Positions 47 through 46,100 of a stretch of 64,000 nt of DNA are shown here, piece by piece. The stretch's first letter is position 1. Each line of letters opens with the position of its first letter. Location: the IMG/VR virus record IMGVR_UViG_3300050147_000079, one strand, 5' to 3'. A program made the position numbers and the translations under genes. This DNA is from a virus. The notes beneath the pieces are model-generated. The model was not told where the DNA came from. It worked only from the letters and a program-made list of their open reading frames with translations, and searched no databases.

Positions 47-496
47 TTACCTTCCTTTGTTTTTCAACATCCGATCAATCTCTCGAGCAACATCTTTGTC
101 GTGTTCGGAGTGACGCTTGTCGCTATGAGATTTGCCCTTTGCAAGTGCAATGTTGACCTTGACGACTCCGTTGTGCCAGACCAAAGAAACGGGGACAATT
201 GTGTACCCCTTCTGATCAATCGACCCAATCAGTCTGTCAATCTCCTTACGCTTTGCTAACAACTTGCGCGTGCGGTCCTTCACAGCGGTGACGTGGGTGC
301 TGGCAGAGTTGAGCGGAGTGATTGTCAACCCCGTCAACCACAACTCTCCGTCGCGGATGATCACATACCCAGCCGGCATTGTCAACCGGTGGTCACGGAT
401 CGACTTGACCTCCCACCCCTCCAACACTATGCCGACTTGGATCACATCACCGATGTGATAATCAAAGCGGGCCTTACGGTTCTCTAGAATCAGCAT
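47..496 (-). CDS. smpB: SsrA-binding protein SmpB (phage-encoded)
   Basis: N-terminal ENRKARFDYHI, GIVLEGWEVKSIR, RTRKLLAKRKEI and KVNIALAKGK motifs and a basic C-terminal tail; 149 aa. Confidence 0.95.
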   Translation of the reverse strand: MLILENRKARFDYHIGDVIQVGIVLEGWEVKSIRDHRLTMPAGYVIIRDGELWLTGLTITPLNSASTHVTAVKDRTRKLLAKRKEIDRLIGSIDQKGYTIVPVSLVWHNGVVKVNIALAKGKSHSDKRHSEHDKDVAREIDRMLKNKGR

Positions 497-18587: not shown

Positions 18588-18696
18588 ATAAACAGTAAAG
18601 CAATAAGAACGGCGGAGGTGGTTCCAGGCGGCCGCCTGCCACTACGTCACTTTGAGCGCACAAACTCCAGCGCACCGTTTCCCATCACACGCCACA

Positions 18697-18776
18697 CGCC
18701 ACAAGAGGATTCGAACCTCCCAGCTGAGTGCCCCCAGCCTGTGAACCACACCCCGGCGGACCTTTCCGGTGTGACG
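18697..18776 (-). ncRNA. Degenerate or non-canonical tRNA-like element without CCA
   Basis: Acceptor CGTCACA / TGTGGCG and T-arm GGAGG-TTCGAAT-CCTCT; D and anticodon arms are not canonical. Confidence 0.5.
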
Positions 18777-42579: not shown

Positions 42580-44874
42580 TCAACCGTCAATCGCGTTAAC
42601 GTACTTGATGATCTTCCGGATCTGCATATCGTCAGCATATTTGAAGTTGACGAACGTGAGCATTGGATAGTGGTCAACCACGCTCTGCCACTTACTGGTT
42701 AGGGTGACGTGACGCATCACACGATCACCATCTGCAATCCTCAACTGTGCAATCACTTGGCGAATGTGCTCAGCGGGGTGATTGACAGTCGCGTCGCCAG
42801 CAAGCTGAACAATCTCAGCCATGAGTTCTTTGAACGGACCATCTTGCAACCCTGTGCTCAGACTGTCCCAGTTCTTGACCATGTAGTTGATCAGAGGGCG
42901 ACCAAGTTGGTCAGAAACAGAGTCCACGATGTTCTTAGCGAACAGCCGATCGTCAACGTTGGCGTCGTCAAATGCATCTCGGACGTACGTATACACGTCT
43001 ACCCACTCTGCATCATCTTGAATCTTCTTCAGGTCTTTGTCGTTGAGTCCATACAACTTTTGGTCGACTGAGACTAGACCGAGAGCCCGTGCAGATTCCC
43101 ACAACTCATGGATACCGTTGAACTCATAACCATCCTTCTGAGCAGCGTACCGAACAATCGGTACATAAATGCCACCGTCTTCGAAGTCGATCACTTCCGT
43201 GTCCCACGTATTGCGACTGAACTTGCGATGGAGACCAGTCTCACGGCCGTAGTAGTTGTGCTTCTTGGTGAACCCAGTCCACACGTACACTTCGCCTGGC
43301 TCACGCTTGGTGTACGTACGGCTACTACGAACCGTCACAACTTGAGGCAGTTCGGAAACGTAGGTGAGATCGATCCCTTCAAATTGGTCAACAACAAGTT
43401 GGGCTTGCTTGTCATCTACAGGGCCACGCTTGGTGTGTGAACCGATCAGCAGTGCTTGTGCACGCTTGCCATTCACCTCGCCCTGCTTGATCAGATACTC
43501 AGTAACGCGCTTGGACACGTTGCCAGAGCCAACATCGTCGACGATCAGATGCAGGTTGGCGTGAACACTGAACTCCATCTTTTTGGTGAGATTGCTCGGA
43601 TCCCAAACACCCAGAGTGTGTTGTTTGTAGCCACTTCTACGTGTACGCTCGAGGCCCATCCGCACAAGACGGACTTCAGTCAATTTGCTGAGGTCCAGAG
43701 TCAGTTCATCAGGAACCACGCGGTCGTTGTACTGAAACGGGGCAGTATCCTGCATCTTTTTGAAGATGTCGGAGAAGGTGCCTTTGCGGAATGTATACTG
43801 CTGACGCAGCATCATCGCCTCCCACATATTCTTGCATTTGTCAAATTCGGACTGGAACGACGAACGCATTTCTTGGGCGGCCTGCTGCAGGTGGTTGATC
43901 AGGTTGGTCACCGTTGCTGGCACGTACGACAGCGATTCACGGGATGCAGCAACCTCAACCTTGCCGATTGGCACATACAGATCGAGGTCGGTATTTGCCA
44001 GCAGGGCAGCTTCATCTTTGAGACCATACTGCTGCAGTTGGTAGGTGTCGATAGGATACGACACAAAGCCCTGCACCACGTGCGGGCCATTCATGTCCGC
44101 ATAGTAGTCAGTGGAGCGAATGCGCCACGAATCGCCCGTCACAGTATGAACCAGCGAGTATGGAGAGAATCCGTACGGGCCGATCACCACCGGTTTCGGA
44201 TCGAAGTACATCAGCGCTTTCCGCGCTGCATCAACAAACTTGTCGGAATCGGACGGACGAACGGAAAGGGAAACGGTGACGCCGTTCGGATCTTCCGTCG
44301 GCTCAGTGCCCATCAGGGCAACGCTCGGCATTCCTTGTTCGTTCTTGAAGCACGTGTAGAGAGATCGGATCCCTTGGTGACGCGACTCAACCATGAACGA
44401 CGTGGTGTAGCTGAACGGAGACTTGCTACCGAGACCCAGTTGGCCGATGAAGTCGTTACTTGAGGTTTTGGTCGACTCGAAGTACGTGTTGTAGATGCCA
44501 CCCTTCTTCTCCCAGCCACCCATGCCGGAGATCAGACTTTGCTCGGCACCTTCTTCCAGGGACACTTTGGTGCCGTCATCGCGCAACCAATAGCCACGCA
44601 CGTCGAAGTCACTCAGGCCAGTGCCAAAGTCTTTGACGTAGAACGTGGGATCGAGCGTGGTCGGCAGACGAATTTCAATCGGCTGAGTGGTGCCTGCAGC
44701 AACGTGGCTGTCATGGGCGTTGCACGACAGCTCACGGATGATCGCCAGGATCTTGTTGGCATATAGACCACTCGACAGAATGTCAAACGCCTTTGCAGTG
44801 GCCTTGATCGTGAAACCAGCTTCTGCGCCAGTGTTTCCGCGTTCCAGATGGATGTCGTCTTGTGCAACGAGCAT
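42580..44874 (-). CDS. rIIA: rIIA-like protein (N-terminal GHKL ATPase)
   Basis: AFDILSSGLYANKILAIIRELSCNAHDSH, VKDFGTGL and IGQLGLGSKSPFSY motifs. Confidence 0.9.
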   Translation of the reverse strand: MLVAQDDIHLERGNTGAEAGFTIKATAKAFDILSSGLYANKILAIIRELSCNAHDSHVAAGTTQPIEIRLPTTLDPTFYVKDFGTGLSDFDVRGYWLRDDGTKVSLEEGAEQSLISGMGGWEKKGGIYNTYFESTKTSSNDFIGQLGLGSKSPFSYTTSFMVESRHQGIRSLYTCFKNEQGMPSVALMGTEPTEDPNGVTVSLSVRPSDSDKFVDAARKALMYFDPKPVVIGPYGFSPYSLVHTVTGDSWRIRSTDYYADMNGPHVVQGFVSYPIDTYQLQQYGLKDEAALLANTDLDLYVPIGKVEVAASRESLSYVPATVTNLINHLQQAAQEMRSSFQSEFDKCKNMWEAMMLRQQYTFRKGTFSDIFKKMQDTAPFQYNDRVVPDELTLDLSKLTEVRLVRMGLERTRRSGYKQHTLGVWDPSNLTKKMEFSVHANLHLIVDDVGSGNVSKRVTEYLIKQGEVNGKRAQALLIGSHTKRGPVDDKQAQLVVDQFEGIDLTYVSELPQVVTVRSSRTYTKREPGEVYVWTGFTKKHNYYGRETGLHRKFSRNTWDTEVIDFEDGGIYVPIVRYAAQKDGYEFNGIHELWESARALGLVSVDQKLYGLNDKDLKKIQDDAEWVDVYTYVRDAFDDANVDDRLFAKNIVDSVSDQLGRPLINYMVKNWDSLSTGLQDGPFKELMAEIVQLAGDATVNHPAEHIRQVIAQLRIADGDRVMRHVTLTSKWQSVVDHYPMLTFVNFKYADDMQIRKIIKYVNAIDG

Positions 44875-44903
44875 GTTGTATACCTATGTCAAAATTGAGG
44901 ATT

Positions 44904-45026
44904 TGGTGCGCCGGCGAGGATTCGAACCCCGAAACTCATTCAACCTGATCACACGTTCGGATTCCAGTCTAGCGGGGTGGTCTTTGCCCCGACTTCGTGG
45001 TGATGCGAGACCAATCGCACCAGCAC
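44904..45026 (-). ncRNA. 123-nt enlarged tRNA-like RNA with encoded CCA
   Basis: Acceptor GTGCTGG / CCGGCGC-A-CCA; T-arm CGGGG-TTCGAAT-CCTCG; D-like arm TGCGA-TTGGTC-TCGCA; middle segment about 70 nt with no standard anticodon arm. Confidence 0.65.
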
Positions 45027-45152
45027 TACTGCCCTATACTCCGTGTGAGTTTGCTGCTTCGTGTTTTACCCACAGTTAGCGGCTCTTTGTTTCCGCGCTG
45101 TGCTTGTTAAACTAACGGCACGAGGATACTGTCGTTGAGATCGCGTTGAAGA

Positions 45153-46100
45153 TCAACCGGGCAACATAACTCGGCTCTTAGGAAGCTTGTCGCCCAACAG
45201 TCGCCGAGCCTTGACCCACGGACACGCCGACGTATGATCTTCCAGATATCGATCTGCAAACCGACCGCTCAGCACACGACGACAGTGCACGCATGAGCCA
45301 TAATCATCGTCCGTAATTGGATCGTGTGGGGCTAGTTGAGTTAGCAGCTTCTTGGGAATCATGTCGGTTTTTCAGCAAATGCGGACGGTGCGGCCGGGTG
45401 GTACAGACTTTGGATCAATGGGAAACTGACAGCCCGTTTTCCATTCAATCGGAAACACAGTAGACTTAGCGTTCCATTTGCCAGCCTTCAGAGCTGGCAG
45501 CAGGACAGCCCGCTTCTTGCCTTCGTGGCTGATGCGGTAGCCCGGGCCATTCCACTTATTCCAGCAGTTTGGTTTTATCAGCTGCATTTGACGCAACACA
45601 CCGTACTTCAACGAGAACAGTGTCTCGGTGCGCGTGTTCCAGTAGTATCCAGGATACTTGATCGGAACGAACTCTGGAGGAATGATTTGCATATCAATCT
45701 TGGTTGAAGGTCTTAACGATCTTGGTAGGCACGCGTAGAATCACAGCTCCTACATAGTTTGAAGCGTATCCGCCGCAAGCAATCAGGTTCATGAAAGCAA
45801 CCCGGTCTCCAATGTTGAGGATGTTGCTAAAGCATCCTTATGTGCACGGGTAGACTTTACGTATTTCTGATTGTTACTCTATCCAATAGGTTAATCGGTT
45901 GGACGGACTTGGACCCACTATCCCAATCGATGAACACGAACATTTTATCAGGGTCAGGATTTCCGTGTCGATCCCAGTGCGTGCATTGCTTACCACTCAC
46001 TACACCCCACACGCCAGTAGCGTCTGAGACGACGTGCGTTCCAGGCAACACGTCTTCGTAGTCCAGTTCCGAAACCTTCATATCATCCTTCCCTGGGAGC
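45153..46100 (-). CDS. Small hypothetical proteins (45153-45362, 45372-45692, 45857 to about 46085)
   Basis: Coupled minus-strand ORFs. Confidence 0.55.

Follow-up and report, generated by a model that had tools for sequence, protein, structure and literature searches.

The locus described here raises a simple question: what is an oversized tRNA-like element, complete at its acceptor end and lacking an anticodon arm, doing directly in front of the rIIA gene of a phage? The phage is large and uncultured, comes from leaf litter and has a genome of at least 205 kb. We worked mainly on one 64-kb stretch of it (IMG/VR record IMGVR_UViG_3300050147_000079), which we call the window and whose coordinates are used throughout; (-) marks features on the minus strand. 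An initial annotation of this DNA had described the element as a tRNA mimic with a remodelled anticodon region, and had offered an intron-containing tRNA, a decoy and a partner of the tmRNA-binding protein SmpB among the possible explanations. Here, we set out what the element consists of, how far it can be regarded as a tRNA, how it is placed in the rII region and which of the explanations best accounts for it.

The whole element is 123 nt long and runs from 45026 to 44904 on the minus strand, as established by reading the sequence and by the frame descriptor introduced below. The features originally listed for it are all present, namely a 7-bp acceptor stem with two G-U pairs, a discriminator A, an encoded CCA, the T-loop and a 5-bp D-like stem. 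The acceptor 5' strand GUGCUGG (nt 1-7, 45020-45026) pairs at 7/7 positions with CCGGCGC at 44908-44914, with wobbles at U2-G71 and U5-G68 and an ensemble pair probability of 0.88; this 3' strand, the discriminator A and the encoded CCA together make up nt 113-123 (44904-44914). The T-arm, CGGGG-UUCGAAU-CCUCG (nt 96-112, 44915-44931), has five pairs, one of them G-U, and adjoins the acceptor 3' strand directly, as in tRNA. Its loop is exact, with the G53-C61 and T54-A58 positions canonical. On the other side of the acceptor stem, the D-like hairpin UGCGA-UUGGUC-UCGCA (nt 8-23, 45004-45019) has five pairs, GG in its loop and U8 in place, and an ensemble pair probability of 0.12-0.13. Its loop contains neither A14 nor A21, and 0-1 nt separate the acceptor and D stems.

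From D arm to T arm there are about 70-71 nt, and it is here that the element departs from a tRNA. In this remodelled centre, a possible helix UCAC(C)AC/GUGUGA (nt 24-30 and 73-78, 44949-45003) encloses 42 nt that include an inner hairpin, CGGGG-CAAAGACCA-CCCCG, with a 9-nt loop (nt 36-54, 44973-44991). Both had been suggested in the initial annotation, and the complementarities on which that suggestion was based are indeed visible in the sequence, but nearest-neighbour thermodynamics favours neither helix. Position 3:70 is G-C and not G-U, so the alanine determinant of tmRNA is absent, as had been noted.

To define the tRNA-like part more strictly, we used a frame descriptor consisting of a five-pair T-stem, a TTCRANY loop, an abutting acceptor stem with 7/7 pairs, and NCCA. 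Across both strands of the window (128 kb), it matches tRNA-Met, tRNA-Thr and the element, and there were no matches in 200 dinucleotide shuffles. Because the descriptor picks out only the real tRNAs and the element, and nothing in shuffled sequence, the frame of the element is tRNA-derived beyond reasonable doubt. Both real tRNAs of the phage likewise encode their CCA. The window contains the exact sequence GGTTCGAATCC three times, once each in tRNA-Met, the element and a look-alike at 18.7 kb. This second tRNA look-alike lies at 18693-18776 (-), just downstream of tRNA-Thr, and has a 7/7 acceptor stem (CGUCACA/UGUGGCG) and the T-arm GGAGG-UUCGAAU-CCUCU, without a CCA and without an anticodon arm.

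The frame of the supposed mimic is therefore real; the element as a whole is accepted by no tRNA or tmRNA model. ARAGORN with default settings and Rfam at its gathering thresholds each call the two real tRNAs in the window and do not call the element. When the Rfam search was relaxed to E values of up to 10, with either 701 nt or the 141 nt around the element alone, no match to tRNA, tmRNA or a group I intron appeared. The sole near-match was mascRNA, at 13.9 bits and E values of 1.9-9.4, achieved via the T-arm alone and far under the gathering score. The element possesses the 7-bp acceptor stem abutting a 5-bp T-stem, the TTCRANY loop and the NCCA end of a tRNA; it does not form a complete cloverleaf, for which an anticodon stem of 5 bp and a loop of 7 nt would be needed.

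An ordinary decoding tRNA might nevertheless be produced by splicing, and some observations are compatible with an intron. ARAGORN run with -i offers a tRNA-Ser(GGA) with a 225-nt intron (44904-45225) or a tRNA-Phe(AAA) with a 121-nt intron, and CUGGAAU at nt 59-65 resembles an anticodon loop. The Ser model, however, is mismatched in two stems, with C opposite C in the acceptor and G opposite G in the anticodon stem, and we rejected it because the 5' exon would come from within ORF69, which is a conserved protein-coding gene. The Rfam model Intron_gpI has no match at E values of up to 10. We also removed every contiguous segment of 20-65 nt from the element, giving 2,645 variants, and reran ARAGORN on each; the 19 variants that were called all had mismatched anticodon stems or 'anticodons' of two or four bases, and so no single deletion in this size range restores a credible tRNA. 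The intron-containing tRNA is thus largely refuted, and we attach almost no probability to it.

The comparison with tmRNA had a similar outcome. In its tmRNA mode (-m -ps, with a lowered threshold), ARAGORN reports nothing at the element, which carries G3-C70 where a tmRNA has G3-U70. Nor does it match a tmRNA model or show pseudoknots or an mRNA-like domain that contains a resume codon and a tag, and it is just 123 nt long. The element is neither a tRNA nor a tmRNA.

The phage does encode a full-length SmpB of its own, at 47-496 (-) of the window (Pfam PF01668, E 7e-50). SmpB and tmRNA genes are already known from huge phages (PMC7162821). The phage protein is 43% identical to E. coli SmpB, and its nearest relatives, at about 56% identity, are from Burkholderiales (Roseateles, Limnobacter), which suggests capture from a host and points to a betaproteobacterial one. 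We found no tmRNA gene in the 64-kb window, nor in the 8 kb flanking smpB to each side (in L143), and the Burkholderiales type of the protein hints that the phage uses the tmRNA of its host.

On these grounds, the element might be a minimal tmRNA-like partner of the phage SmpB that enters stalled ribosomes and provides the internal frame GCA-AAG-ACC-...-UGA (AKTTPLDWNPNV, followed by the stop) as a tag. The presence of the full-length protein, the tmRNA gene missing from the regions searched, and the A73, T-arm and GCA-initiated frame of the element all agree with such a role. Against it, position 3:70 is the wrong pair, neither ARAGORN at the lowered threshold nor Rfam at E values of up to 10 gives a tmRNA match, and 123 nt leave no room for pseudoknots. 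The candidate tag ends in NPNV, unlike the usual tmRNA tag end, which is hydrophobic and Ala-rich. Moreover, smpB is 44 kb from the element, and its closeness to ordinary Burkholderiales SmpB is what would be expected if the host tmRNA were used. Nothing that we found ties the phage SmpB to the element, and we consider the partnership proposed by the initial annotation very improbable.

Folding calculations complicate the picture further. The minimum free energy (MFE) of the element is -41.5 kcal/mol, compared with -37.2 kcal/mol when the tRNA frame (acceptor and T stems) is enforced and -29.8 kcal/mol for the fold originally drawn, so that by nearest-neighbour energies the tRNA-like fold sits 4.3 kcal/mol above the MFE. 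Pair probabilities are about 0 for the T-stem and for the two helices of the centre (helix X and the inner hairpin). The T-stem value can be set beside 0.92 for tRNA-Met, 0.28 for tRNA-Thr, 0.98 for the 18.7-kb look-alike and 1.0 for the rnaC RNA of phage T4. The tRNA-like fold is disfavoured because CCCCG at nt 50-54 competes with the 3' strand of the T-stem for CGGGG. MFE z-scores are unremarkable, both for the element (-0.24) and for the whole leader (+0.81). A tRNA shape could still be reached through co-transcriptional formation of the three local hairpins and through tertiary contacts at the elbow. The folding result nevertheless does count against a robust tRNA fold.

Downstream of the element lies rIIA, as the initial annotation had it. 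The gene occupies 42580-44874 (-) and encodes 764 aa; it matches PHROG 612 over its full length (E 7.4e-115), which settles its identity, and has tblastn matches to annotated rIIA genes. Its start codon is 30 nt past the CCA of the element, and the 29-nt spacer (44875-44903, -) is rich in A and U, has a weak Shine-Dalgarno sequence (AGG) before the ATG and contains no terminator. An rIIB-ACP fusion gene follows rIIA. On the upstream side, a non-coding leader (45027-45152, -) reaches from the stop codon of ORF69 to the element, and its DNA similarity to the rIIA leaders of related phages is not significant. Part of this leader (about 45060-45120) had been described as structured; the fold of 45027-45120 is no more stable than that of shuffled sequence (z = -0.52), and the description is not supported. 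A plus-strand ORF of 130 aa at 44687-45079, antisense to rIIA, has no Pfam or PHROG match and was treated as spurious.

The next genes upstream are ORF69 (45153-45362, -) and ORF106 (45372-45692, -). ORF106 was identified by tblastn (E 2.6e-29) and blastp, and is homologous to the C-terminal half of a 223-226-aa protein that precedes rIIA in relatives. Between ORF106 and an RlmN-like radical-SAM gene there is a gap of ~390 nt (45693-46082, -), whose counterpart in relatives holds different small genes or the N-terminal half of the 226-aa protein. The gap contains the nearest upstream sigma-70-like promoter, TCGACA-18-TG-TAAAAT at 45942-45971 (-), which scored 10/12 matches in a consensus scan. 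No consensus promoter was found between ORF69 and rIIA, and no terminator-like site in 44600-45800. A provisional promoter, 'P1' (TTGATC-17-GACAGT), was dropped, as its 7/12 matches fall under the scan threshold, and an apparent resemblance to the promoter and leader of L040 and L042 was dropped because it was not significant against shuffles (p 0.09-0.75). Since there is neither a terminator nor a promoter from ORF69 to rIIA and the nearest promoter-like site is at 45971-45942, the simplest view is that the element lies within a transcript with the order ORF106-ORF69-element-rIIA-rIIB, and it probably belongs to an early operon with the order ORF106-ORF69-element-rIIA-rIIB-ACP.

ORF69 encodes a small CxxC...H...C protein. 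A search of 1.84 billion representatives gave 53 homologues (best E 1.7e-17), in which C24, C27, H43, C47, P48 and W49 are invariant; judged by this conservation, it is a real 69-aa gene that the gene callers used for the assemblies missed. Its exact sequence is absent from the gene-call collection. The protein is zinc-finger-like, belongs to no Pfam or PHROG family, and has homologues in metagenomic phage contigs as a standalone protein or as part of a fusion. We looked at the context of four homologues: one (L162) lies directly before four ordinary tRNA genes and another (L161) directly before an RNA ligase gene. A link between ORF69 and tRNA genes, seen in one of the four contexts, is anecdotal. 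In L162, positions 874-959 hold an 86-nt tRNA of class II shape with a long variable arm, for which the ARAGORN assignment 'Arg(CCG)' looks doubtful.

We compared the locus with 13 rIIA relatives, comprising L040, L042 and L044-L046, at 43-51% identity, and the metagenomic records L147-L154. All 13 have a strong promoter, (C)TGTTGAC-17-(T/G)A(T/C)A(A/G)T, located 45-60 nt before the rIIA ATG, and this common promoter is missing from the present phage alone. None of the 13 has a tRNA-like element before rIIA, where the intergenic space is just about 70-90 nt and would not accommodate one. The element thus takes up the position in which the relatives have their dedicated rIIA promoter and leader, and its absence from all of them means that, together with ORF69, it is a lineage-specific acquisition. 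The region from the radical-SAM gene to rIIA is a hot spot of gene turnover. Around the central insert, we found neither target-site duplications nor repeats that were informative.

Three contigs of the same phage (L037-L039) are 100% identical to the window, and no variants occur in the 90% clusters to which ORF106 and rIIA belong. A blastn search of the element against 50,697 phage records returned generic tRNA 3' ends and no homologue. In IMG/VR, a pattern of the T-loop and acceptor 3' strand found 36 ordinary tRNAs and no homologue, a D-loop and T-loop at oversized spacing found just neighbouring tRNAs and chance matches, the inner hairpin pattern found six unrelated coding matches, and a pattern for nt 60-77 found none. 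A single scan of species genomes with the 3' T-arm/acceptor pattern gave one chance match, in an archaeal MAG, so neither a copied end of a common host tRNA nor the remnant of an attP site accounts for the element. It is an orphan of a single lineage.

With moderate confidence, we take the element to be a tRNA-derived, non-decoding 'top-half' RNA that is processed out of the rII transcript. It would have kept the acceptor/T-arm minihelix, a GG-bearing D-like hairpin and the encoded ACCA, the anticodon arm having been replaced by ~70 nt of unrelated sequence. Under this proposal, the element would be co-transcribed with rIIA. Bacterial RNase P recognizes the stack of acceptor stem and T-arm together with the RCCA end; because minihelix and RCCA are intact, cleavage by host RNase P at G1 is to be expected if the element is transcribed. 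We infer that an endonuclease would then cut after the CCA, within the A/U-rich 29-nt spacer. This would release a tRNA-shaped RNA of ~123 nt that does not decode, and would leave rIIA-rIIB on an mRNA of its own that begins with a short leader. Processing of this kind may replace the dedicated rIIA promoter that every relative has, and the released RNA may also act in trans, for example by binding or diverting proteins that handle or target tRNAs. By analogy, the look-alike at 18693-18776 and the precedent for such a design in T4 rnaC lend some weight to the top-half reading. Against the same reading stand the near-zero probability of the T-stem and the 4.3 kcal/mol by which the modelled fold exceeds the MFE, the lack of A14 and A21 in the D-loop and the unremarkable z-scores. 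In addition, a recent insertion into a tRNA gene would give the same appearance.

This last point leads to the main rival of the top-half reading, according to which the element is a young pseudo-tRNA: an insertion or rearrangement would have broken up the anticodon region of a tRNA gene, perhaps one that arrived together with ORF69, and left a relic without function whose other parts have not yet decayed. We regard this as unlikely on balance, though it deserves to be taken seriously. An orphan that is missing at this site in 13/13 relatives, sits in a hot spot of gene turnover and has no anticodon arm is what one would expect of a relic, as is a centre whose CCCCG competes with the T-stem and makes the tRNA fold thermodynamically unfavourable. 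The ORF69 homologue of L162, with its four tRNA genes directly behind, even makes an ORF69-tRNA cassette conceivable; the three other homologues, however, have no adjacent tRNA. Against a relic, the 12/12 frame pairs, T-loop, discriminator and CCA have all been preserved, whereas the centre is unrecognizable. As no removal of a single segment restores a tRNA, the element is not the product of a simple recent insertion.

Rather less probable, in our estimation, is the decoy also raised by the initial annotation, in which the released top half, charged or not, acts in trans and soaks up host factors that work on the acceptor end or elbow, such as the tRNA-targeting toxins of defence systems, and so shares an anti-exclusion purpose with the rII genes. 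The element has the build for it, with acceptor stem, T-arm and CCA intact and no anticodon, and it is placed within the rII operon. No set of anticodon-independent aminoacylation identity elements is evident: the G3-U70 of tRNA-Ala and the G-1 of tRNA-His are both missing, and nt 73 is an A, in contrast to the G73 usual in tRNA-Ser. Relatives with the same rIIA and rIIB-ACP genes also lack the element. That phage tRNAs counter tRNA-targeting defences has been proposed in one earlier study (PMC10264068), which would fit a decoy. We considered, finally, a purpose-built top-half RNA that is released from the rII transcript and acts in trans, either as a decoy for defence enzymes attacking the acceptor end or elbow, or as a pared-down RNA for ribosome rescue that works with the phage SmpB. 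This we hold to be a slim prospect; if true, it would tie the rII anti-exclusion module to the translation and tRNA machinery.

The finding is a modest one, as it concerns an orphan of one lineage. What is unusual about the element is its position, between a small zinc-finger gene and rIIA, where every relative has the rIIA promoter. This position provides a concrete role in cis to consider, beside any role in trans: the element may serve as RNase P 'punctuation' that frees the rIIA-rIIB mRNA. If the element is functional, it offers a handle both on what such RNAs do and on how the expression of the rII genes is organized.

Several known systems share parts of this design. The tRNA-like domain of tmRNA resembles the element in its acceptor stem, T-arm, A73 and lack of an anticodon arm, and an SmpB gene is present in the same phage; the element differs in having no G3-U70, no pseudoknots, no recognized tag frame and no model match. 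Canonical tRNAs (RF00005), including the tRNA-Met(CAU) of the phage itself (14164-14242), have the same acceptor stem, T-arm, discriminator A and encoded CCA. The element and tRNA-Met are identical at 10/14 acceptor-stem bases and over the whole T-loop, a similarity that looks too generic to show descent of one from the other; the element differs from canonical tRNAs in its 123-nt length and missing anticodon arm, and its D-arm is unlike that of tRNA-Met.

The arrangement that we propose also has parallels. In mixed tRNA-mRNA operons, such as thrU-tyrU-glyT-thrT-tufB of E. coli, and in MALAT1/mascRNA, cleavage by RNase P separates the flanking RNAs, and a tRNA-shaped unit is embedded in a longer transcript, as it would be in the rII region. 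This likeness is not one of homology, and the units that punctuate them are true tRNAs or a eukaryotic 61-nt mimic.

The closest design is that of T4 species 1 RNA (rnaC, 139 nt; NC_000866, 70908-71046), which is found together with species 2 RNA (rnaD). For about 50 years, phage T4 has been known to produce oversized, non-decoding, tRNA-shaped RNAs, and we know of no function established for them. Like the element, rnaC is phage-encoded, oversized and non-decoding, has no anticodon, and carries a canonical T-arm (CCGGG-UUCGAAU-CCCGG) beside a terminal closing helix. The two have no sequence homology by blastn, T4 being included in the 50,697 phage records searched, and they differ in their surroundings, as rnaC lies in a tRNA cluster and the element in the rIIA leader. 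The T-arm is thermodynamically dominant in rnaC and not in the element, whereas the element has the cleaner acceptor stem, with 7/7 pairs, and encodes its ACCA.
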